DNA of 63,948 nt, filler included, from Sandaracinaceae bacterium (GTDB lineage Bacteria; Myxococcota_A; Polyangia; Polyangiales; JADJQN01), in assembly GCA_947483975.1 (NCBI GenBank). It is 7 parts of 7 records of this genome, joined end to end, with 100 filler letters (N's around TTAATTAATTAA, not from the genome) between each part and the next. Parts side by side here need not be neighbours in the genome. Positions count along the whole stretch, not along the records: positions 1 to 9,584 come from CANKOL010000199.1; 6 more parts are not named here. The stretch is one strand, 5' to 3'. Below are positions 1 to 47,973 of this stretch, piece by piece. The position numbers and the translations under genes were made by a program. The notes under the pieces are model-generated. The model did no database searches. It was given only the letters and a program-made list of their open reading frames with translations, and had not been told where the DNA came from. The stretch's first letter is position 1, and the number at the start of each line of letters is the position of its first letter.

Positions 1-2009
1 CCGAGCAAGCACGCGTTGCTGCAGGCGTCGGCGTCGACGAGGTTGCCGTCGTCGCAGACCTCCCCGGTGTTGAGGACGCCGTTGCCGCAGACGAGCTCCA
101 TGCAGGTCCGCGTCGTCAGGTCGCAGGTGCGCCCCGCCGGGCAGGGAGCGCCGCACGGCGTCTGGCAGATGGACGGCTGGCCCGCGCAGGTCGCCGCCGG
201 CTGGCCGCAGTAGAGATCGAGCGCGTCCTGCGCGCAGCCCGCGCGCGTGCGGAAGTACCGCGCGATCGTGCCCGCGGGGCAGTCCACGACTTGGGTGCTC
301 CCCGGAGTGCCGCCGCCGGTGACGTGGACGTCCGTGGTCGGCCCGACCGGCGTTCCGTCGACCGTCATCGCCTGGCAGACGATGGTCGCGTCGGTGAAGA
401 GCGTCGGCGTGCCGCTCAGGGTCGAGGGCATGCCGCGAATCCCGACGACCGCCGAGCCGCTCGGGCAGAGCGCCTCGGGCGACCACGACGCGGGAGTCCA
501 CCCGCCGCAGCCCGAGCCGCCGCTCTCCTCGCCCGTGGTCCGCGTCGTCGTGACCTCGCCCGTCGCGCTCACCGCGACCGCGCCGCAGATCGCCCGCGTG
601 CCGACGGCCTCGGAGCGCGTGTCGCTCCACAGGAACGCGAGGCCGATCAGCACGTCGTTGCTGCCGCAGCCCATCTGCGGACCAGTTCCGCCGCCGTCCC
701 CGCCGATGCGCCCGGCCAGCGTCTCCATCGAGTACGTGATCGTCGGCGTCGCGCAGCTGCAGTCGAAGCCGCCTTCGATCGTGCAGGTCGGCGAGCAGCC
801 GTCGCCCGCGACGAGGTCGCCGTCGTCGCACGCCTCGCCCGCATCCACACGCCCATCGCCGCACGCCGTCGGGCTCGCCACGCACACGTGCAGCGTGGTG
901 TCGCAGGTCGCGCCGCCCGCGCAGTCGGCGTTCTCGACGCACTCCACGCAGACGTTGGTCGCGCCGCTCGTGTCGCAGATCGGCGTCGCGCCGCCGCAGC
1001 CCGTGTCGGCTACGCCGGGCGCCGCGCTGTCGAGGCAGGGCTGGCACGTCGAGCGCGCCACGTCGCAGACGCCCGTCGCGCAGTAGCGGTCCGCCGTGCA
1101 CTCGACGCAGGTGAGCGAGGCGGGGTTGCACGCCGGCCGGCTCGCGATGCATCCCGAGTCGAGCGTCCCCATCCCGACCGAGCAGAACTGATCGGTGAAC
1201 GAGAGGCGGTAGCGGAGCGTCCGGGGCGCGGTCAGCACGCCGAGCGACCACTCGACGCCGATGCCGTTGTCGGTCGTGTCGCTCGTGTCCTCGACGTTCC
1301 CGAGGTCACGCCCGTTGTCGAACTCGGTCTCGAGCAATTGGCTGTAGAGGCCGGAGAAGAAGAAGTCCCAGGGATCCGCGACTCGGATGAACGCCTCGAA
1401 GACGTCGAGCCGTCGCACGCCGACGACGGCAGGATCCGCCGCGCTCGGGCGGACGTACGCGGGGCCCGCGTCCGACCCGGCGAGGAAGGTGTCGATGGCG
1501 TGATAGAGCCGCACCTGCTGGGTGTTCCCCGCGGGCGGCGTGACCTCGAGGTCGATCAGCATCTCGTCGTCGGGCAGCGTGTAGGTCACCGTCCAGCGCA
1601 CGGTGAAGCCACCGCCGGTGAGCGTGGTCGTGCTCGTCCAGGGGTCGGCGCGGGTGCCGCTGCCGGTGACCGGCGTCTGCCCGCCCGCGGTCCACACGGT
1701 GTCGACGGCGGGCGCCGCGGCGACCGACGACGTGCCGTACACCGTGGCAGTGCCGCTCGGGCCCACCGCGAGGAAGACCCCGTTGTACATATCGGTGCTC
1801 GGGGGCAGGCTGCCGGGCGCGTAGACCTGCCCGGTGCCCGCGCGATGGATCTGGAGCTGCCCAGTCTCGCCCATATTGATGCGGAGGCCGGTCGCGGGAT
1901 CCGCGGTCCCGCCGGTCGGGTTGAGCTCACGCCGCTGGGCGCTCGCCGTACCGGCCGAGAGGGCTACGAACAGGGAGAAAACAGCGAGGATGGCGCGTTG
2001 GTTCTTCAT
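1..2009 (-). CDS. Secreted Cys-rich surface protein with myxobacterial Cys-rich repeats (DUF4215-like), TraA-like layout; 3' end runs off the window
   Basis: Translated by hand (absent from the ORF track because there is no stop in the window). Signal peptide MKNQRAILAVFSLFVALSAGTASAQ, a Cys-free domain of about 250 aa, then repeats such as CGDGRVDAGEACDDGDLVAGDGCSPTC and CGNGVLNTGEVCDDGNLVDADACSNAC. Confidence 0.85.
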   Translation of the reverse strand, partial: MKNQRAILAVFSLFVALSAGTASAQRRELNPTGGTADPATGLRINMGETGQLQIHRAGTGQVYAPGSLPPSTDMYNGVFLAVGPSGTATVYGTSSVAAAPAVDTVWTAGGQTPVTGSGTRADPWTSTTTLTGGGFTVRWTVTYTLPDDEMLIDLEVTPPAGNTQQVRLYHAIDTFLAGSDAGPAYVRPSAADPAVVGVRRLDVFEAFIRVADPWDFFFSGLYSQLLETEFDNGRDLGNVEDTSDTTDNGIGVEWSLGVLTAPRTLRYRLSFTDQFCSVGMGTLDSGCIASRPACNPASLTCVECTADRYCATGVCDVARSTCQPCLDSAAPGVADTGCGGATPICDTSGATNVCVECVENADCAGGATCDTTLHVCVASPTACGDGRVDAGEACDDGDLVAGDGCSPTCTIEGGFDCSCATPTITYSMETLAGRIGGDGGGTGPQMGCGSNDVLIGLAFLWSDTRSEAVGTRAICGAVAVSATGEVTTTRTTGEESGGSGCGGWTPASWSPEALCPSGSAVVGIRGMPSTLSGTPTLFTDATIVCQAMTVDGTPVGPTTDVHVTGGGTPGSTQVVDCPAGTIARYFRTRAGCAQDALDLYCGQPAATCAGQPSICQTPCGAPCPAGRTCDLTTRTCMELVCGNGVLNTGEVCDDGNLVDADACSNACLL

Positions 2010-2014
2010 GGTGC

Positions 2015-3850
2015 TCACCTGTCGATGGTCTCGGAGGTCGGGCCTGTGGTGGTCGTCGTGACGTCGGAGGCGCTGAGGATCTCGAACACCACGCGACGGT
2101 TCTGGGCGTGCTCCGCGGGGGTGTGTGCGTCAGCGACGACGGGGTGGTCAGGGCCGTAGCCGACCGCCGTGAGCCTCGCGGCGTCGATGTGCCCGACGTC
2201 CACCAAGTGCCGCACGACGGACTGGGCGCGCCGCTGCGAGAGGTCGAGGTTGTGCGCGCGAGCGCCGCGGTTGTCGGTGTGTCCGGAGACGCGGATGTGC
2301 GCGATCTCGGGGTGCGCGGTCAGCACCGCGGCGACGTTCGCGAGGAGCGGGAAGCTCCGCGAGAGGATCTCGTCGCGGTCCGTGCGGAAGTAGACCGTCT
2401 CGATGATCACGAGCGAGCCGTCCGAGATGAAGACCGTCTGGACCTCGGCCGCGGGGCAGCCGTAGTTCGCCACGGGCCCGGGCACATCGGGGCAGTTGTC
2501 GCGGCGATCGACGACCGTGTCGGTGTCGCGGTCCGGGTCGGGGCAGCCGTGGTTGTCCGCGACGCCGGCCTCGTTCGGGCACTGGTCGGGCGCGACGTCG
2601 AGGACGCCGTCGCCGTCGTTGTCGGGGTCCGGGCAGCCGTCCTCGTCTTGGAAGCCGTCGCGGTCCTCGGCCTCGGTCGGGCAATGGTCGTTGGGGTCGA
2701 GCAGGCCGTCCCCGTCGGTGTCCGGGATGGTGTCGGGGCAGCCGTCGGTGTCCTGCCACTGGTTGACGGTCTCGGGCACCATCGGGCAGGTGTCGTCGAC
2801 GTCGAGGATGCCGTCGCCGTCGTTGTCCGGGTCCGGGCAGCCGTCAGCGTCTTGGTAGGTGTCGATGTCCTCGACCTGACCGGCGCAGGGATCGACCGGC
2901 GCGGGCGCTTCCCGCGGCAGCGCCCAGCCGACCATCAGCACCGCGCGCACGTCCGGGCTCCCCACGCCCCGCGTGAGGCCGGGGCCCGCGACGGCGCCCA
3001 CCGTGAGGCCGCTCGCGTGCGCGAAGCGGACGCCGCCGAGCGCCTCCGAGGTCGTCGCCTCGCGGCCGAGAAGATCAGAGAACGCCGTCTCCGCGTGGAG
3101 CTGCGCGAGCAGATCGAGGTGCGTCTGAGCGTCGCTCGAAGCCGTCCACACCGGGAACGACACGCCGAGGCCGAGCCGCAGCGCGTTCCCGAAGACGATG
3201 TTGCTCGTCGGCTGAGCGACCGAGCCGCGCACGAGCGCGCCCGCGTTCGCCACGATCCGCAGCCCGCCGCCGGGCCGAAACTCCGCCGTCAGCTCGGGCC
3301 GCACGGACACAGACTCCTCGCCGCGGTACGCGCCGGCGCCGCTGCTCGGCAGGCCGAGCGTCGCCTGCACGCCGAGCGCGAACGCGTCGTCCTCCTCGCC
3401 GAAGAGCCGCGCACGCACGCCGAGGTACGCGTCCCCGAGCCCCGTTCCGTCCGAGGCGCGCGGGCCGAGCCCCGTCACCGTGCTCGCGTCGGCGCCCGAC
3501 ATAGTGAGCACGACCGGCAGCCCTCCGTAGACCACCAAGCGATCGAAGAGGCCGAGGCTCAAGACCACCGTGCCGACCAGCTCGTGCGCGACGATCGAGA
3601 GGCGCTCGGTCGAGGCGTCACCGAGCGTGTCCTCCCAGACGAGCGGGTTCCTCGCGTAGTCGAGGTGCAGCATCGCCCCGAAGCGCAGGTGCCCGAGGTC
3701 AGTCGGGCGGGCGAGCGCGAAGTCGTCCTCGGGCGTCTGAGAGGGCGTGTACGCGTCGAGCGTCGCCGTCTGAGCGAGCGCCGCGGTGGGCAGCGCCAGG
3801 ACCGCAGCCGCGACGAGCAGCGCGTGGATGGGGCGGAGATGCACGGACAT
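2015..3850 (-). CDS. OmpA-family outer-membrane protein: N-terminal beta-barrel, thrombospondin type-3 repeats, C-terminal OmpA peptidoglycan-binding domain (TraB-like)
   Basis: Signal peptide from ATG 3850; repeated DxDGCPDPDNDGDG motifs; C-terminal GHTDNRG...NLDLSQRRAQSV...NRRVVF. Confidence 0.9.
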   Translation of the reverse strand: MSVHLRPIHALLVAAAVLALPTAALAQTATLDAYTPSQTPEDDFALARPTDLGHLRFGAMLHLDYARNPLVWEDTLGDASTERLSIVAHELVGTVVLSLGLFDRLVVYGGLPVVLTMSGADASTVTGLGPRASDGTGLGDAYLGVRARLFGEEDDAFALGVQATLGLPSSGAGAYRGEESVSVRPELTAEFRPGGGLRIVANAGALVRGSVAQPTSNIVFGNALRLGLGVSFPVWTASSDAQTHLDLLAQLHAETAFSDLLGREATTSEALGGVRFAHASGLTVGAVAGPGLTRGVGSPDVRAVLMVGWALPREAPAPVDPCAGQVEDIDTYQDADGCPDPDNDGDGILDVDDTCPMVPETVNQWQDTDGCPDTIPDTDGDGLLDPNDHCPTEAEDRDGFQDEDGCPDPDNDGDGVLDVAPDQCPNEAGVADNHGCPDPDRDTDTVVDRRDNCPDVPGPVANYGCPAAEVQTVFISDGSLVIIETVYFRTDRDEILSRSFPLLANVAAVLTAHPEIAHIRVSGHTDNRGARAHNLDLSQRRAQSVVRHLVDVGHIDAARLTAVGYGPDHPVVADAHTPAEHAQNRRVVFEILSASDVTTTTTGPTSETIDR

Positions 3851-4020
3851 CGGGAGAAGCCTCCTGGTCGCGCCGCAGGGCGAGACGGACGGTCGAACCC
3901 GTCGCACCTAGGGCTCGGGGCCCCGCTGAACAGTGGGGCCGCTCACAATTCTCGCTCACGCTCCGGTTCCCTGCGGGGCGAGCCCATGGAGCGCGAGCGC
4001 GTCCGCCTCGCCCCGCGGCC

Positions 4021-4407
4021 AAGCTGAGCTTGCCGAGCGTGAGGTCGTCGGCCTCCGGCCTAAGCTCAGCTTGGACGGAAAGACCCAAACGGTGGAACCG
4101 CGATAGCTGCGCTTGGGCGGCAGAACCGCGGAGGTCCAAACGGCCAAGCTCAGCTTGCGAGGGACAACGTGGAGGTTGTCGGCGCCAAGCTCAGCTTAGG
4201 CGACAAGACCGAAACGGTTGATCAGCGATAGCTGAGCTTAGGGGGTCCGAACCGCGGAGGTTCGAGCGTCCAAGCTCAGCTTTGGCGGCACAACCGGGAG
4301 GTTGTCGGCGCCAAACTCAGCTTGGACGTGCCGACCGAAACGGTTGATCCGCGATAGCTCAGCTTGGACGGCAAGACCGAAACGGTTGCGCCGCGATAGC
4401 GAAGCGT
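4021..4407. repeat. Intergenic array of about 9-10 units of 41-43 bp with palindromic core (A)AGCT(C/G)AGCTT and a second dyad ACC-N4/5-GGT
   Basis: Cores start at 4022, 4063, 4105, 4147, 4188, 4230, 4273, 4314, 4356, with a degenerate copy at 4398. Confidence 0.9.
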
Positions 4408-4510
4408 CGCGCGCGCCCTACGGCGCCGTGCAGAGCCCTGCGCGGCGAGGTCGTCACAAGTCGCTGCCTCCTTCGCCACGGGCCCGCGACCCGTCGCCGC
4501 GCGAACGCGC

Positions 4511-4777
4511 TCAGATCGGGTCGGGCTGGCAGCTCTTCGTGGAGCCGCCGCTCACGCCGTTGCACGAGTAGCCCGTCGGGCAGTCGTCCATGAGCTCGCA
4601 GACCTTGCGGCACACGTTGCCGGGGCTCTCGTTCGTGCAGACCGCGCCGTCGACGCACTCGCTGAGCGAGCCCGCCGTGTCGCACGCCTCGCCGAGGTCG
4701 GGCGCACCGCAGCCCGCGACGAGCAGGCCCGCGCCTAGGAGCAGTGCGACCGAGAGCGTGCGTAGGGAAAGGGTCAT
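4511..4777 (-). CDS. Small Cys-rich lipoprotein
   Basis: Lipobox LLVAG-C followed by 9 more Cys in about 65 aa. Confidence 0.75.
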   Translation of the reverse strand: MTLSLRTLSVALLLGAGLLVAGCGAPDLGEACDTAGSLSECVDGAVCTNESPGNVCRKVCELMDDCPTGYSCNGVSGGSTKSCQPDPI

Positions 4778-4840
4778 GGCTGCGGATTGTACGACGCGCG
4801 ACGCCAGGGGATTCATTCCCGGCGCGAGCGAGGTTTTTCG

Positions 4841-5323
4841 TCAGTCGATGCGATAGGCCGCGATGGCGCGCTCGACCTCGGGCTGCGCCGCCTCGAAGAC
4901 GTCCTTCTTGCCGCCCGCCTCGAGCACGAAGACGTTGTGGTCCGTGACGAAGACGGTCAGCCAGAAGAAGTACGGGCCGCCGCTCTCGTCGTGCCCGAAG
5001 CGGAGCTGCTTGCCCGCCTCGCCCGACGCCGCGCGCACGTCCTTCTCCTCGAGCAGCGCGTAGCCGCGCACGGTGCGCATGCGGCGCTTGATGGCCTCGA
5101 CCCAGAACGCGAGCGGGCCATACGGGTCGTTCGGGACCTCGCGCACGGCCATCACGACGCCCTCGGCGCTCGTCGCCCGCTGCGTGTAGCTGTCGCCGGG
5201 CTCGGAGAGGTCGATGAAGTTGGGCGGCGGGGTGAGGTGTGAGGCGGCGCCTCCGCACGCTCCGAGGAGCAGCGAGGCGGCGAGGAGCGTGGCGACCAAG
5301 ACGGGGCGTAGCGCGCGGTTCAT
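4841..5323 (-). CDS. Lipoprotein of unknown function, neighbour of the DUF4349 protein
   Basis: Lipobox LLLGA-C; coherent 160-aa ORF starting 4 nt after the DUF4349 gene stop. Confidence 0.8.
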   Translation of the reverse strand: MNRALRPVLVATLLAASLLLGACGGAASHLTPPPNFIDLSEPGDSYTQRATSAEGVVMAVREVPNDPYGPLAFWVEAIKRRMRTVRGYALLEEKDVRAASGEAGKQLRFGHDESGGPYFFWLTVFVTDHNVFVLEAGGKKDVFEAAQPEVERAIAAYRID

Positions 5324-5327
5324 CGCA

Positions 5328-6248
5328 TCACTCCTGATAGGGCAGGTTCAGCAAGCTGCGGAGAGAGAGCTCGTCGAGCCACGGGAACGGCAGGCGGAAC
5401 ACATCGGGCTGATCCGTGGTCGCCGTCGGCGCGGGCTGGAAGAAGACGGTGATGGTCGAGAACGCGATGCGGTCGCCGAGGTACGCCATGCGCCCCTTCA
5501 GCTGCTCGATGACGCCGGTGATGCGCTCGAGCTCCGTCTGCACGGCGAGCGCCTCTTCGACGGTGCGCGCCTGCGCCATCAGCGCCGCGAGGCGGTCGCG
5601 CACGACCTCGGCGTTGCGGAGGCGTATCTGCACGTCGCGGAACTCCTCGCTGACGTCGAGCGCCTCGATGTTGCGGTGGAGCACATCGCCCACCTGCTCG
5701 ATGCGCGCGAGCGCGTCGCGGAACTTGCTCGCGGGCACGCGGATGACGACCTGCTGATCGTTCTGCACGGCGAGAAAGCCGTTCAGCTCCTGCGCGATGG
5801 CGATGACCGAGCGCTGCGTCGTCTCGACCTCGAACACGCTGAGGTGGAGCGTCGCCTGATAGATCAACAGCGGGCCGCGCTGCGCGTCGTCGGCGGCGCC
5901 GTGGGGCGGAGGCGTGGTCGTCGTCGGCACTGCCTGCGGCGGCGACGGTGGCGGCGTGTTCTGCGCGTAAAGCTGCGGTCCATCGGAGTCGCCCGAAGCG
6001 GACGAGCCGGTCGCCGTCGTCATCGGCTGCATCGCGGAGGACGCGCGCGAAGGCGGAGACTCTTCCGAGTCGGACGACGCGGTCTGCACGGACTCGGACT
6101 GGAAACCATACGACGAGCCGCCCGACGACTCGGCGACGGCGTAGTCGCCCGGCGCGGCCGACGGACTCATCGCGTAGCTCGCCGAGCCGCCGCAGGCCGC
6201 CAGCGCCAGGGAGAGCAGCAGTAGCATCCACTTCACACGCGTGCGCAT
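5328..6248 (-). CDS. DUF4349-domain lipoprotein
   Basis: Lipobox ALAA-C, low-complexity linker, then IRVPA..F...DVSEEFRDVQIRL..., a coiled coil and RIAFSTITV, typical of DUF4349. Start codon uncertain. Confidence 0.85.
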   Translation of the reverse strand: MRTRVKWMLLLLSLALAACGGSASYAMSPSAAPGDYAVAESSGGSSYGFQSESVQTASSDSEESPPSRASSAMQPMTTATGSSASGDSDGPQLYAQNTPPPSPPQAVPTTTTPPPHGAADDAQRGPLLIYQATLHLSVFEVETTQRSVIAIAQELNGFLAVQNDQQVVIRVPASKFRDALARIEQVGDVLHRNIEALDVSEEFRDVQIRLRNAEVVRDRLAALMAQARTVEEALAVQTELERITGVIEQLKGRMAYLGDRIAFSTITVFFQPAPTATTDQPDVFRLPFPWLDELSLRSLLNLPYQE

Positions 6249-6339
6249 CACTCGAGCCTCCTGCCGATCGTCGCCACTCGAACGTTGGTGGAACCGCATC
6301 GTATACGCTCCTCGGCCGTCGTTCTGCCCCAATGTGCGG

Positions 6340-7125
6340 CTAGAAACGATAGTCGGCGTAGGCGCCGAACGTCATCATGTCGCGCATCGCGCCGAAGCTC
6401 GGCGAGGCGCCGATCAGATGGTGCCCGCTGACGTCGAGCCCGAGCGCGAGCGCGCCCTCGGAGACGGGATACGCGAGCTCGAGCCCGACGCGCCCCGTCG
6501 CCGCGAACGCGGTGCCGCCCTCGGCTTGGTGCGGGTCGATGGTCACCGTCTCGAGCCCCGCGCCGACGACGGGGTGCACGACAGCGCGCGTGAGGAAGCG
6601 ATAGTTGAACGTCGCGCCCGCGGTGTAGAGCGCGGCGGGCGTCGTGCCGAGGCCGCCGTCGGTGCGCGCGACCTCCATCGCGTCGGGCGCGAGGTCGAAG
6701 CGCAGCGCGAACTCTGCGGCGCCGACGGCGAGCCCGACGTGCAGGCGATACGCGGCGGCGACGCCGGTCACGCCATCGCCGAAGAAGAACAGCCCGCCCA
6801 TGCCCGCGCCCGCGATGACGAGCCCGTGCGTGTCGTAGGCGTCGCGCTCCCGCGAGTCACCCGCGGGGCCCGCGTCGACGTCGGTGGGGTGCGCGTTGAG
6901 CGTGATGTCGACGGTGGTCGTCGTCGTGCCCGTCTGCACGGGCGTGACGTAGTAGGTCGTCACCGGCTGCGTGAGCACGATCGGCCGCTCGACGAAGGTC
7001 TGCACGGCCGGGTCCCAGTACAGCTCGACCGCGGACGCCGAGCGGGGCGCGACGGCCCAAGCGAGAGACAGCGCGGCGAGCGCGAGCGTCGAGAGGCGAG
7101 CGAGGCTTGGGCGGATCGAGGGCAT
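6340..7125 (-). CDS. Exported protein, probable outer-membrane beta-barrel
   Basis: Signal peptide, alternating beta-strand pattern, terminal YRF motif. Confidence 0.7.
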   Translation of the reverse strand: MPSIRPSLARLSTLALAALSLAWAVAPRSASAVELYWDPAVQTFVERPIVLTQPVTTYYVTPVQTGTTTTTVDITLNAHPTDVDAGPAGDSRERDAYDTHGLVIAGAGMGGLFFFGDGVTGVAAAYRLHVGLAVGAAEFALRFDLAPDAMEVARTDGGLGTTPAALYTAGATFNYRFLTRAVVHPVVGAGLETVTIDPHQAEGGTAFAATGRVGLELAYPVSEGALALGLDVSGHHLIGASPSFGAMRDMMTFGAYADYRF

Positions 7126-7173
7126 CGGAGGCTCCGGCGTGAGGGGAAACGTGAGGAGAGAGCCCGCGCGCGG

Positions 7174-9522
7174 TCAGCGCAGGAACGCGGTGACTTGGTC
7201 GGCGCCGAGGTCGGCGGGCGCGGTCGGGTCGATGACGACGGCGCGTTGAGCGTCGAGCGTGACGGTGACCTGCTCGCCGAGCGCGAGCGCGCTCGCGAGG
7301 TCGGGGCGGGCGCGCAGGAGCGCGAAGTACGCGGCGCTCATCGCGCGGAGGCGGAGCGTGCGCATCCCCGCTTGGTAGCGCGAGTCAGTCCAGCCGCCGC
7401 CGCTGCGCGTGAACGTGCGCCCGGCGACGAAGCGCGAGGTGAGCGCGTCGTCGGTGTCGGTGCGCTCGGCCTCGCGCATCGTGCGCAGGCGCGCAGAGAG
7501 CCGCCGACCGCCGTCGCCCATGCCGCCCGAGGGGGCCGCTTGCGGCGCTTGTGGGGCCATGCTTGCGCCCGCTGAGCCGCCGCCCATGCGCGACGGCGGC
7601 GCGACGCTCGCAGAGTCGAACGACTCGAAGTCACGCGAGGCCGACTCGGACGCCGTCGCGGGCGCCGACGAGGGCATGGCTTGGCCACGGTTGCGCTCCT
7701 CGTTCAGCATCGGCATCCCGGGCGTCGAGGGGCGCGTGATCACGGGCACGTTGAGGCCCTGCATCGCGGAGTCCGGCGCGACGAGATAGCTCGTGTACGG
7801 CGTCACGATCCCGAAGCGGCGCGAGAGCGCGACGACCTCGTCGCGGAGCTCCGAGCGCTCGCCGTGCAGGCGAATCTCGTCGAGCAGATAGCCGATCTTC
7901 CGCGTCGCCCAGAGGCGCGGGAGGAAGTCGTTCTGCGCCTCGGTCGCGGGGAAGTTCACGTCGAACGCGAAGGCGTGCGGCGCAGGCTCGGTGCTGAGCT
8001 TGCCGGTCAGCGTGACGTGGCTCGCGCCCGCGTTGCGATAGCGCCCGACGACGAGCAATTGCGCGCCGCGATAGAGGTGCCCGAGGTCGCGCGGGTAGGT
8101 GTCGAAGGAGCTGATCCCGGGCAGCGCGAGCGCGAGGTCGGTCAGCAGCGGATACGCGACGCGGTCGTAGAACGACGAGAGGCGGCGCTCCATCTCGGCG
8201 CCGTCGCGGAAGTAGTCGCCGACGCCGCGGTTGGCCGTCGCGAGCGCGTCGAGGAACGTCGTGTTCACGTCGTCGCCGACGCCGAAGACGAACAGCCGCG
8301 CATCGCCCGAGCGGCGCGCGACCTCGTCGACGATGCGCGAGGGCTCCGTCTCGCCGACGGTCGGCATCCCGTCGGTCAGGAACACGACCATGCGCGGCAG
8401 CCCGCTCACCGCGGGCGCGCGGAGCGCCTCGACGAGCGCGGGCTGGATCGCCGTGCCGCCCGCCGCCGCGAAGCCGCGCGCGAACCGCCGCGCCCGCGCG
8501 AGGTTCTCGGGCGTCGCCGCTGCGCTCGCGCCCCCATCGAAGAGCACCTCGACGTCCGTCGAGAAGCGCACGACCTGAAATTTGTCGGTCGGGCGCAGCC
8601 GCTGGAGCATGTAGTCGAGCGCCGCGCGCGCGCGCTCGAGCTTCTCGCCCGCCATCGAGCCCGAGGTGTCGAAGACGAAGAGCACCTCCTTCGAAGCGAT
8701 CTCCGCGTCGGTGACCTGCGAGCGCGGCGCGATCATCGCGAGGAAGTAGCCGTCCTCGCCGGGCTGCCGGTGCGTCAGCAGCGACAAGCCGACGTCGCTG
8801 TCTTGCACCGCGTAATAGAGGTCGAAGTCGGTGTCGAGCGTCGCCGCGTTCGCCTCGAAGCCGATGGTCGCGTGGTGGTCGTCGGGGCGCGCGACGGAGA
8901 TGCTGTGCGTCGGCGAGTAGACCGCGCGGATCGCCGTGCGCGAGACGATCTCGGCGGAGATGGTCAGGTCCTCCATCGTGCGCGCCGCGCGCCCGCCGGT
9001 GCGGAGCGGATAGCGGTAGTGGATGACGCCGCCGTCGTACGGCAGCACCTGCGTGAAGCTCAGCTCGATGCGCTGATCGCTGTTCGGCTCGATCGGGAAG
9101 ACGCGCGCGCGAAACAGATTGCCGCCCATCGACTCGACGAGCCCCGGGTCGCGCATACGCGCCACGATCTGCTCGTAGATGCTGCGCGCTTGGCCCGCGT
9201 CGAGCAGCTCGCCCTGCAGGCGCTGCCCGTTGACCCACATCGCGAAGCCGCTGACCGACGCGCCCGCCGGCACCGGGAAGATGTACGTCGCCTCGAGGCG
9301 CTGCCCGGTGTTGTTGCGGAAGACCTGCTCGATCCGCGTCTCGGCCGAGCGCTCGCGGACCGTGACCGTCACGCGATGGCTGCGGATCATCAGCGGCTCG
9401 AGGTTCGCTTGCGTCGGCAGGAGCACGCCGATGGCGTGCGCGCTCCCCGGGTGCACGACGGCGACGAGCCCGGCGAAGAGGACAGAGGCAACCAGAGCGC
9501 GGGCGTTGGGCATGGAGTGCAT
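7174..9522 (-). CDS. VIT + von Willebrand factor A domain protein (inter-alpha-trypsin inhibitor-like), exported
   Basis: VIT motif LEATYIFPVP..ASVSGF; MIDAS motif FVFDTSGSM, GGT, FLTDG; later VTPYTSYLV. Confidence 0.9.
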   Translation of the reverse strand: MHSMPNARALVASVLFAGLVAVVHPGSAHAIGVLLPTQANLEPLMIRSHRVTVTVRERSAETRIEQVFRNNTGQRLEATYIFPVPAGASVSGFAMWVNGQRLQGELLDAGQARSIYEQIVARMRDPGLVESMGGNLFRARVFPIEPNSDQRIELSFTQVLPYDGGVIHYRYPLRTGGRAARTMEDLTISAEIVSRTAIRAVYSPTHSISVARPDDHHATIGFEANAATLDTDFDLYYAVQDSDVGLSLLTHRQPGEDGYFLAMIAPRSQVTDAEIASKEVLFVFDTSGSMAGEKLERARAALDYMLQRLRPTDKFQVVRFSTDVEVLFDGGASAAATPENLARARRFARGFAAAGGTAIQPALVEALRAPAVSGLPRMVVFLTDGMPTVGETEPSRIVDEVARRSGDARLFVFGVGDDVNTTFLDALATANRGVGDYFRDGAEMERRLSSFYDRVAYPLLTDLALALPGISSFDTYPRDLGHLYRGAQLLVVGRYRNAGASHVTLTGKLSTEPAPHAFAFDVNFPATEAQNDFLPRLWATRKIGYLLDEIRLHGERSELRDEVVALSRRFGIVTPYTSYLVAPDSAMQGLNVPVITRPSTPGMPMLNEERNRGQAMPSSAPATASESASRDFESFDSASVAPPSRMGGGSAGASMAPQAPQAAPSGGMGDGGRRLSARLRTMREAERTDTDDALTSRFVAGRTFTRSGGGWTDSRYQAGMRTLRLRAMSAAYFALLRARPDLASALALGEQVTVTLDAQRAVVIDPTAPADLGADQVTAFLR

Positions 9523-9584
9523 GGGACCTTCCCCTCCGTGGGTCCCGGGCTCCGACGTGCAGCCTCCGAGAAGGATCTACGAAG

Positions 9585-9684
9585 NNNNNNNNNNNNNNNN
9601 NNNNNNNNNNNNNNNNNNNNNNNNNNNNTTAATTAATTAANNNNNNNNNNNNNNNNNNNNNNNNNNNNNNNNNNNNNNNNNNNN
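9585..9684. other. Artificial contig spacer (identical spacers at 19256-19355, 28829-28928, 38402-38501, 47974-48073, 57468-57567)
   Basis: N44-TTAATTAATTAA-N44, a six-frame stop linker. Confidence 0.99.
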
Positions 9685-9770
9685 CTCCGCAGCGAAGCCG
9701 AAGGCCGTCCGGACGGGCACCGCCAAGAAGAAGTAACGCGAGCGCCTCGCTCGTTCACCAGCAAACTCGT

Positions 9771-9799
9771 TTGACAGTCAGGCGGAGGCGCCGTACAAA
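9771..9799 (+). promoter_or_regulatory. Sigma70-type promoter for the rpmI operon
   Basis: TTGACA (9771) - 17 bp - TACAAA (9794). Confidence 0.6.
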
Positions 9800-9866
9800 C
9801 CGCCTCCCCTTCCGCGCATCGCCGCGTCCCCACGCTGGTTCTGCGCAAGAGAGAACGGAGCCTCAA

Positions 9867-10067
9867 GTGCCGAAGATGAAGACGAACAGCGCTGCAGCCA
9901 AGCGCTTCAAGGTCACGGGTACCGGCAAGGTACGCCGCGGCAAGGCGGGCCTGAGCCACTTCATGCGGGGCAAGTCCGCAAGTCGTCGGCGCAAGCTGAG
10001 GAAGAACGGGATCGTGTCGGACACGCATCAGGGCCACATCGAGCGCCTGATGCCCTACGCGTTCTGA
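9867..10067 (+). CDS. rpmI: 50S ribosomal protein L35
   Basis: MPKMKTNSAAAKRFKVTGTGKV from a GTG start. Confidence 0.97.
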   Translation: MPKMKTNSAAAKRFKVTGTGKVRRGKAGLSHFMRGKSASRRRKLRKNGIVSDTHQGHIERLMPYAF

Positions 10068-10096
10068 CGCCGACCAGCCTCCGCTGGCCGACTTCA

Positions 10097-10174
10097 CGGC
10101 CCAGCTCTCGCTGGGCAACGCCCCGGCCCAGCGTTCGCTGGGCAACGGCTCGGCCCGGCAGCACTGCTGGGCCC
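10097..10174. repeat. Three tandem 27-bp hairpin units (CGGCCCAGC-N4-GCTGGGC)
   Basis: Units start at 10097, 10124 and 10151, between rpmI and rplT; the third is divergent. Confidence 0.75.
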
Positions 10175-10226
10175 GCCCATTCTTCCATCCCTCGCTGACC
10201 CGCTGATCTGAGACCTAGGAGTTTGT

Positions 10227-10571
10227 ATGCCGCGCGCAAAAAGGGGCTTTAAGGCCCGTCGTCGTCGTAATCGTATCTTCCGCCACGCCAAGGGCTTCTA
10301 CGGCGCCCGCGGCCGCATCTTCGGCGACGCCGTCGAGCAGGTCCGCAACGCTTGGACTGACGCGTTCAAGGCGCGTCGTATGCGCAAGCGGGACTTCCGC
10401 CGCCTGTGGATCGCCCGCATCAACGCCGCCGCGCGTCTGCTCGGCGTCAGCTACAGCAAGCTCACGTTCAAGCTGAAGACCGCTCGCATCGAGATCGACC
10501 GCAAGATCCTCGCGGATCTCGCCGTCAGCGATCCGGGTGGTTTCAAGGCTGTCGTCGACGCCGCTCAGTAG
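10227..10571 (+). CDS. rplT: 50S ribosomal protein L20
   Basis: MPRAKRG...[16 protein letters not shown]...[11 protein letters not shown]. Confidence 0.98.
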
Positions 10572-10604
10572 AGATCGTTTGCTGCTTTCTCGGAGGGCTG
10601 TTCC

Positions 10605-11720
<1,116 letters not shown>

Positions 11721-47776: not shown

Positions 47777-47876
47777 CTCGACTGGCTACCTCGACTGGCT
47801 ACCTCGACTGGCTACCTCGACTGGCTACTTCGACTGGCTACTTCGACTGGCTACCTCGACTGCCTACTTCGACTGG
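47777..47876. repeat. 13-bp tandem repeat (C/T)TCGACTGGCTAC, about 7.7 copies
   Basis: Units start at 47777, 47790, 47803, 47816, 47829, 47842, 47855 and 47868. Confidence 0.95.
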
Positions 47877-47973
47877 CGCGCCGCGCGGCGGCGGCGTGCG
47901 ACCAAGAGCAGCGCGGCGAGCCCGAGCGCGCCGCTCCACGTGGGCGGCAGGGCGCTGCCCGCGCCGACGAGCG
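47864..47973 (-). CDS. 3' end of a protein with a MYXO-CTERM-like sorting tail (partial)
   Basis: ...LVGAGSALPPTWSGALGLAALLLVARRRRAARQSK*: hydrophobic helix followed by an Arg cluster. Confidence 0.65.

Follow-up and report, generated by a model that had tools for sequence, protein, structure and literature searches.

What is the array of short, regularly spaced palindromes at positions 4022 to 4406 of a 63,948-nucleotide stretch of DNA from a Sandaracinaceae bacterium (GenBank assembly GCA_947483975.1), and how does it relate to the known classes of bacterial repeat? The whole stretch, hereafter the window, opens with one complete contig, C199 (positions 1 to 9584), which carries the array, and continues with other contigs joined by runs of N. 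The source is a fragmented metagenome-assembled genome (MAG) of 5.29 Mb in 524 contigs, 81% complete. We conclude, with some reserve, that the array is probably one locus of a lineage-specific, hairpin-capable, non-coding minisatellite family with a unit of approximately 42 bp. No description of this repeat family was found in full-text literature searches.

Structure of the array

All full units follow the same order, consisting of a core palindrome (AGCT-S-AGCT), approximately 8 to 10 bp, a short second palindrome, and approximately 8 to 11 bp more (Table 1). With at most one mismatch to AGCT-S-AGCT allowed, cores start at 4022, 4063, 4105, 4147, 4188, 4230, 4273, 4314 and 4356, at spacings of 41, 42, 42, 41, 42, 43, 41 and 42 bp, and the decayed tenth core stands a further 42 bp on, at 4398. 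The coordinates, layout and spacings given by an earlier examination of the letters of the window (the sequence-only reading) were right; its order for the second-dyad variants along the array, C?-A-B-C-A-B-C-A-A, was reproduced exactly, and its higher-order repeat of approximately 125 bp was recovered by Tandem Repeats Finder (TRF) as a 126-bp period at 4062-4373, besides periods of 41 and 42 bp. The motif AGCTSAGCTT matches 13 times in the window, counting both strands, with 12 of these matches in 4021-4365; the expected number is 0.09, and none of 100 shuffles reached 13.

No open reading frame (ORF) of 40 or more amino acids crosses the array and its spacings mix 41, 42 and 43 bp, in agreement with the earlier view that it is non-coding. 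An Rfam search (evalue mode) of 3000-5500 and of two related loci of the same genome, on contigs C54 and C361, gave a best E of 0.64 and no family match. One stretch, TAGCTCAGCTTGG, resembles a tRNA D-arm, yet ARAGORN calls no tRNA within the array.

Table 1. The array, its internal features and the genes on either side, in window coordinates.
Feature	Position	Strand	Description
Tandem array	4022..4406	.	9 full 41-43 bp units and a decayed tenth core
Unit 1, divergent edge unit	4022..4062	.	Second dyad GAGGTC-GTC-GGCCTC, with one G-T pair
126-bp higher-order repeat of unit types A-B-C	4062..4373	.	TRF 2.5 copies, 80% matches, score 412
Decayed terminal core AGCGAAGCG	4398..4406	.	42 bp past the last full core
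OmpA-family gene	2015..3850	-	Pfam OmpA 1e-15, TSP_3 repeats; ATG at 3850, AGGAGG upstream
Cys-rich ORF, 101 aa	4511..4816	-	No Pfam family; stop codon 105 bp from the right end of the array

One dyad axis per unit

Read from mid-core to mid-core, the unit is an imperfect hairpin with an AGCU/AGCU base, a partly paired middle, an apical stem of 4 to 7 bp and a loop of 3 to 5 nt. When such a unit, with its single dyad axis, is repeated in tandem, two alternating dyad centres necessarily fall 21 bp, or half a period, apart: the spacer-less core at the unit junction, and the short mid-unit stem with its centre of 3 to 5 nt. The 21-bp grid of two repeats and two spacers that the sequence-only reading described is present, but its parts are not separate elements; since the grid follows from the single dyad axis, they must be counted as one feature and not as four.

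The whole array is more self-complementary than shuffled sequences, with z values of -8.78 on the plus strand and -8.82 on the minus strand (0 of 100 shuffles on each). For 43 representative units folded with fixed AGCT ends, mean z was -1.29 on one strand and -1.19 on the other, with p<=0.05 in 15 and 13 units, respectively. Whole-unit dyad symmetry reached p<=0.05 at 12 of the 47 loci of similar period in this genome (see below), where approximately 2 are expected. These folding and dyad statistics are real but modest. In 15 units from Sorangium, 82.8% of cells pair; with sliding of the partner the figure falls to 24-49%.

Apical stems differ between unit types and keep their complementarity (ACCG/CGGT, CGAACC/GGTTCG, ACAACC/GGTTGT, GATT/AATC, GCGGTTC/GAACCGC and CGCTG/CAGCG), which appears to be the best sign of a pairing constraint. 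No consensus structure emerged from 41 representative units aligned with MAFFT and folded with RNAalifold, and a covariance model built from the 15 Sorangium units found no convincing match in this genome (three hits, E 0.4-0.8).

Sister arrays within the genome

We identified the AGCT-S-AGCT core with a 41-42 bp period at seven loci of this genome. Besides C199, these lie on contigs C211, C54, C175 and C121, which were detected by blastn of the window array against its own genome, and on C168 and C361, which were added by a motif scan. Each array has 2-10 units of 41-42 bp and its own second short palindrome approximately 21 bp after the core. A unit profile searched with nhmmer across the whole genome returned 84 rows, and all those with E<0.05 lie in the seven array contigs (weaker matches, at E >=3.7, lie in 5 other contigs), indicating that there are no solo units. 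Inside the C54, C361 and C175 arrays the units are near-identical, and they differ from array to array, a pattern that we read as concerted evolution.

The sequence-only reading had suggested tabulating the genes beside such arrays. Across the genome, the neighbours of the seven core-sharing loci are unrelated, and include OmpA, phosphoglucose isomerase, Lcl_C, glutamate dehydrogenase and DUF2961 genes, among others; one array follows a tRNA-Met, which itself lies after a pseudouridine synthase (RluB-like) gene. The arrays occupy tandem, divergent and convergent intergenic regions, with two of the seven between convergent gene ends. The proposal that the window array consists of phased sites for an OmpA operon gained no support, as its six sister loci stand beside unrelated genes in all intergenic geometries.

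An ORF lies 76 bp past the C54 array on the same strand (L011:6905-7519; C54:9904-10521), and has sub-threshold matches to CAP12/Pycsar TIR and nucleoside 2-deoxyribosyltransferase families; from these matches it may be a candidate defence-type gene.

A genome-wide class of approximately 42-bp arrays

The seven loci belong to a larger set. TRF rows with at least 2.8 copies in the whole MAG peak sharply, with 11 rows at period 41, 31 at 42 and 8 at 43, compared with 1, 2, 1 and 2 at periods 37 to 40, 2 at 44 and none at 46 or 47. Merging the rows of period 40-44 gave 47 loci, of which 43 lie outside probable genes (gene calls in this work are crude, GC3-based ORFs, where GC3 is the GC content of third codon positions). 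Ten of the 47 are within 300 bp of a contig end, and further arrays are therefore probably unassembled.

At least four junction palindromes coexist in this genome: AGCT-S-AGCT, CTTGC-YR-GCAAG, CTGCG-S-CGCAG and GGGTCC-CG-GGACCC, besides others. An eighth array has the identical 42-bp build with a core palindrome other than AGCT-S-AGCT. Next to its core, the C42 array shares 13 bases with unit 1 of the C54 array, although the cores themselves differ, indicating that cores can be replaced. A/T positions within units recur every 21 bp (harmonic 2, z 4.1, from 40 non-coding units that are related and not independent).

We additionally identified four short 42-bp arrays with a GGGTCC-CG-GGACCC junction and an A/T-rich central dyad (C208:4279-4394, C304:3585-3716, C38:10663-10784 and C171:3375-3495). 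The first three share a right flank of approximately 90-130 nt, so that array and flank recur as one composite repeat.

A dispersed repeat of approximately 175 nt, which we term E, was also found, in 11 near-full copies of 78-84% identity (15 blast matches in all). Copies lie at C54:9344-9539, C276:3416-3581, C361:239-405, C42:12502-12659, C175:3737-3901 and C37:23774-23931, with further copies on C237, C51, C203, C131 and C38 and none on C199. E folds into one long imperfect hairpin of 44 pairs, nine of which are changed on both sides, and has no Rfam match. Most often E is found immediately 3' of a gene in the same orientation, and a 41-43 bp array follows within approximately 520 bp on the 3' side of 6 of the 11 full copies. 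Matches to E in 20 relatives were confined to two partial ones of 68 nt in a genome of the same genus, plus short, weak ones of 26 and 50 nt in two further genomes of the order.

Distribution in other genomes

Both the search of the order and that of the whole collection were keyed on the AGCT core, and arrays with other cores are therefore under-counted. Three genomes of the same family were compared (G001, G002 and G003, of which G001 is of the same genus), and the core pattern and blastn found nothing in any of them. Likewise, blastn of the array found nothing in 40 relatives, and TRF found no array of period 40-44 in a 400-kb sample of G001. Upstream of the best OmpA-like homologues, TRF detected no 41-42 bp array in G001 (L160 and L163) or G002 (L161), although orthology of the homologues in G001-G003 is uncertain at only 45-55% identity.

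The pattern matches 10 of 400 other genomes from this GTDB order, 4 of which (G020, G055, G288 and G403) contain true 41-42 bp arrays. The matches in G054, G136 and G329 are long (AGCTC)n pentanucleotide microsatellites, and the remaining three genomes have single hits only. Three complete Sorangium genomes carry 6, 3 and 3 array loci, and a reversed-pattern control found none; in strain So ce26, arrays are located near 5.175, 5.251, 6.614, 7.185 and 7.938 Mb. Two clear 43-bp arrays, non-coding and built on other palindromic cores, are present in a 400-kb sample of So ce26.

We scanned the genomes of 185,579 species for two cores 31-34 bases apart, which returned at least 119 stretches, 80 of them listed. 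Among the matches listed, loci with multiple matches belong to Sorangium strains and one Polyangiales MAG; at one locus, L070, the two matches are separated by 70 bases. Also among the listed matches, single hits in other phyla are probably due to chance, and an alphaproteobacterial array of exact 42-bp units (L067) reads as a coding repeat.

Five Sorangium arrays (L148, L149 and L152 in So ce26, L156 in So ce388 and L092 in So ce375) lie upstream of, and divergent from, genes resembling extracytoplasmic function (ECF) sigma factors. These genes encode Sigma70_r4_2 and r2 domains with long C-terminal extensions, and have a conserved promoter-like block in common. A second conserved block stands on the other side of the L148, L153 and L092 arrays. 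The genes downstream of L148 (So ce26) and L153 (So ce1014) have 84% protein identity and no Pfam family, and the array units between these strains have diverged.

In So ce26, an element of approximately 6.2 kb with terminal inverted repeats splits an array core (L150, at approximately 6.61 Mb; 4531-10756), leaving AGCTGAG on both sides. One ORF of this element gives a weak match to the integrase core (rve) that falls short of the Pfam cut-off. In So ce388, a similar terminus follows the core at which the L156 array ends, and a shorter look-alike follows the L158 array. Judging from these junctions, an insertion sequence (IS) family may target the core palindrome.

Comparison with known repeat systems

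In the parts of PMC12045711 and bioRxiv 10.64898/2026.09.09.750476 that define systems of tandem interspaced guide RNAs (TIGR), a tas gene, encoding a Nop-domain protein, lies beside an array with units of approximately 36 nt. The definition in that part of PMC12045711 includes two alternating repeats of 8-12 nt, variable spacers of 9 (up to 12) nt, and repeats opening on box D (UG) and closing on box C (CCA), or on equivalents that covary. As far as these parts describe them, TIGR arrays resemble ours in that each unit holds a short, partly palindromic conserved element, another element and two short segments, in runs of 5-15 units; in stem-loop TIGR arrays palindromes flank each unit, at times with a hairpin between the two spacers. 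Measured against the same descriptions, the arrays here differ in lacking tas, in a unit of 41-43 and not 36 nt, in segments that are no variable guides, and in occupying many dispersed loci. In the window array only the core is conserved, the second element takes three forms and the segments recur at 126 bp. Many units have CCA before and TGG after the core, which is the reverse of the TIGR arrangement, and nothing comparable is present at the second dyad.

No Nop protein is present among the seven ORFs of contig C199, and PF01798 (Nop) has no match over the cut-off in any of the seven array-bearing genomes searched (G000, which is the source MAG, and G020, both approximately 80% complete; G041, G042, G043, G403 and G055; several of these are complete), although a divergent Tas might escape the Pfam model. 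The sequence-only reading had called the likeness to TIGR superficial, and these results bear it out, as they do its statement that the array is no canonical CRISPR (clustered regularly interspaced short palindromic repeats). CRISPR repeats, as given in the relevant part of PMC12045711, are approximately 25-36 nt and alternate with unique spacers of similar size. Our arrays are similarly composed of regularly spaced, short palindromic, non-coding repeats; unlike CRISPR, the conserved core spans only 9-15 bp and the intervening sequences are related or identical between units. We found no Cas family among 45 neighbour ORFs (25 in this genome, 20 in Sorangium and G020), a neighbourhood survey and not a genome-wide cas search.

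Type III toxin-antitoxin RNA repeats sit directly upstream of a toxin gene of the ToxN/CptN/TenpN type. The arrays resemble ToxI in consisting of tandem, near-identical, non-coding repeats, of approximately 36-45 nt in ToxI. Pfam identified no ToxN-like or other nuclease or toxin family among the 45 neighbour ORFs, the ORF after the C54 array being TIR-like and deoxyribosyltransferase-like only below threshold.

Bacterial interspersed mosaic elements (BIMEs) combine two types of repetitive extragenic palindromic (REP) unit in opposite orientation with linkers; hundreds of solo REPs accompany them, their head reads GTAG/CGTC, and they are associated with REP-associated tyrosine transposases (RAYTs). 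Unlike BIMEs, the units here are in direct tandem, and nhmmer detected no solo copies in this 81% complete, fragmented MAG. REP/BIME-2 elements of Escherichia coli (REP as defined in part of PMC3733652) are otherwise similar, being intergenic runs of palindromic units of approximately 35-40 bp that are species-specific and IS targets. A link to RAYTs was rejected: PF01797 (Y1_Tnp) is absent from the array-bearing G020, G041 and G043 (3 of 7) and present in the array-free G002 and G003 (2 of 3), as well as in the array-bearing G000, G055, G288 and G403.

Mycobacterial interspersed repetitive units (MIRUs) have no dyad symmetry and other unit lengths, and often lie inside operons with small overlapping ORFs. 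The arrays share with the MIRU/variable-number tandem repeats of Mycobacterium tuberculosis a presence at tens of intergenic loci, tandem units (40-100 bp in the latter), lack of a product and fast change, and differ from MIRUs in their 41-43 bp period with palindromic cores. They correspond to the general description of a minisatellite, with non-coding tandem units of tens of bp at 7 core-sharing loci and at 47 loci of period 40-44.

A probable minisatellite family and its alternatives

The arrays are non-coding, dispersed, dyad-symmetric and patchily distributed among related genomes, and one of them has an IS inserted into its core. We favour the interpretation that they form a minisatellite family, in which each unit would be an imperfect 42-bp palindrome repeated head to tail. 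Identity within arrays and divergence between them suggest that arrays grow, shrink and homogenise through slipped-strand mispairing and unequal recombination, and hairpins formed by single-stranded units may assist both processes. New loci would be seeded, in this genome often in linkage with E. Any effect on the host would presumably be local, through hairpins in read-through transcripts or through DNA architecture between promoters, and the arrays would yield no trans-acting RNA or protein product. Array turnover is fast: the arrays were not found in the same-genus and same-family genomes searched, and of the 7 differences over 4249-4698 in another lake population, 6 lie within the array. 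On this reading, the family occupies the intergenic DNA of some Polyangiales, interrupts assemblies, and may be taken by motif-based finders for CRISPR- or TIGR-like arrays.

Several observations weigh against this interpretation. A neutral or selfish model does not account for a period held at 41-43 bp across different cores, nor for an identical 9-bp core in four GTDB families, although the latter recurrence is partly ascertainment because the search used that core. Single apical hairpins reach p<=0.05 in only 5 of 43 units, most being not significant alone. Of the folding and covariation test that the sequence-only reading had proposed, the folding half succeeded, with the array folding beyond shuffles, and the other half did not, with covariation in the 15 Sorangium units not above shuffles. 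Several apical loops are GNRA on one strand (GAAA, GAGA, GCAA, GCGA and GGGA), and that strand permits more G-U pairs (58 vs 22), which hints at RNA. Both the divergent placement of five Sorangium arrays beside ECF-sigma-like genes and the maintenance of arrays with conserved downstream genes in So ce26 and So ce1014 could reflect retention by selection. Finally, as regards copy number in other populations, the contigs of the three metagenome runs that cover the region (X3, X7 and X8, see below) all break within the array and none spans it. The wider interest of these arrays lies in the sharp 41-43 bp period that different-core families and Sorangium have in common, and which slippage by itself would not predict.

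We consider it unlikely, though worth weighing first, that the arrays are architectural or regulatory DNA, forming helically phased platforms (42 bp being four turns, with dyads two turns apart) that tune neighbouring genes. Acting on them would be a DNA-binding protein that is dimeric or structure-specific, a nucleoid or AT-hook protein, or the extrusion of cruciforms between promoters. Consistent with this, the period stays at 41-43 bp whatever the sequence family, A/T positions recur at 21 bp, junction cores are spacer-less perfect palindromes resembling dimer sites, and self-complementarity is equal on both strands; five Sorangium arrays stand between an ECF-sigma-like gene and conserved promoter-like blocks, and the window array begins 171 bp upstream of the OmpA-like start. 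However, arrays between convergent gene ends or after a tRNA do not fit, and no single sequence-specific protein fits either, because second dyads vary within one array (A, B and C) and at least four cores coexist in one genome. TRF rows show no peak at other whole turns (1 row at period 31, 8 at 32 and none at 52-53). A core regulatory role would also predict arrays in the same-genus genome, where they were found neither by pattern and blastn over the whole genome nor by TRF over 400 kb.

A more ambitious proposal, which we regard as rather doubtful, is that the approximately 40 arrays and their Sorangium counterparts are a dedicated class in which a molecular ruler sets the 41-43 unit. One version would be a Nop-less system, with E as leader, in which transcripts cleaved at the junction palindromes supply approximately 42-nt hairpin RNAs to an effector encoded elsewhere; in the other, a nucleoid or AT-hook protein would read the arrays as architectural DNA phased at four turns. 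Either version, if true, would represent a new kind of array biology in Polyangia.

It is a shade less credible again that the array, in itself, yields a transcript which is cleaved at the junction palindromes to release hairpin RNAs of approximately 42 nt that serve an effector encoded elsewhere, by the logic of CRISPR, stem-loop TIGR or ToxI. The mid-core-to-mid-core unit does fold with a base stem, middle, apical stem and 3-5 nt loop, and tandem hairpins would account for a spacer-less junction palindrome beside a looped apical one. GNRA loops on one strand, apical stems that change between unit types with complementarity preserved, and a leader-like E 5' of the array at 6 of 11 full copies point the same way. 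Against this, neither a Nop-domain protein nor a nuclease or toxin family was recovered in the searches above, the box C/box D arrangement of TIGR is absent, no Rfam family matches, and neither sigma-70-like promoters nor intrinsic terminators are predicted in 3700-4900 (0 of each). The orientation of arrays relative to flanking genes is inconsistent. The guide-like segments are constant across units in C54, C361 and C175 and pair with each other, and the processed small-RNA array of the sequence-only reading gained no support, its 'variable' segments being near-identical in sister arrays and partly paired with each other, and no Nop/Tas protein being found in 7 of 7 genomes. The G-U excess and strand asymmetry are compositional, because fold z is equal on both strands when shuffles match composition. 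In the same way, the T-after-core strand folds better in 11 of 11 oriented Sorangium arrays, but shuffle-corrected z is equal, and we rejected this asymmetry as evidence for RNA.

A decayed coding repeat, in the form of a 14-aa or heptad-repeat ORF that lost its frame, has in its favour that 42 is divisible by 3 and that one So ce388 array of seven units of exactly 42 bp has, as we read it, an open frame. Such an origin can nevertheless be set aside with near certainty. Among the 37 unit spacings in core-family arrays of this genome, 41 bp occurs 21 times, 42 bp 15 times and 43 bp once, so that 22 depart from 42 bp, and C54 has 41-bp spacings only. The C199, C175, C361 and C54 arrays have no frame that stays open from end to end, GC3 is 0.5-0.77 in arrays vs approximately 0.85-0.95 in genes, and the units are dyad-symmetric.

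Flanking genes, coverage and other repeats of the window

The array lies between two minus-strand genes (Table 1). The sequence-only reading placed it upstream of an OmpA/Cys-rich operon; it is indeed upstream of the OmpA-like gene, but downstream of the Cys-rich gene. DNA contigs from three lake or freshwater metagenome runs, of three other studies, cover the region, indicating that it is no assembly artefact. In X3, an apparent joint from 4093 to 4058 with 6 extra letters was considered as a variant of this locus and rejected, as it matches the sister array on C211. Part of the stretch is present in only one RNA run (X20, 0.07 of words), as a single contig of 179 nt at 4701-4879 that does not reach the array.

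Elsewhere in the window, 42-bp-period repeats of 2.1 and 2.4 copies occur on another contig at 35699-35787 and 36076-36176, and the consensus of the second is similar to the array family of C37. A 13-bp tandem repeat of 7.8 copies with 94% matches lies at 47777-47877.

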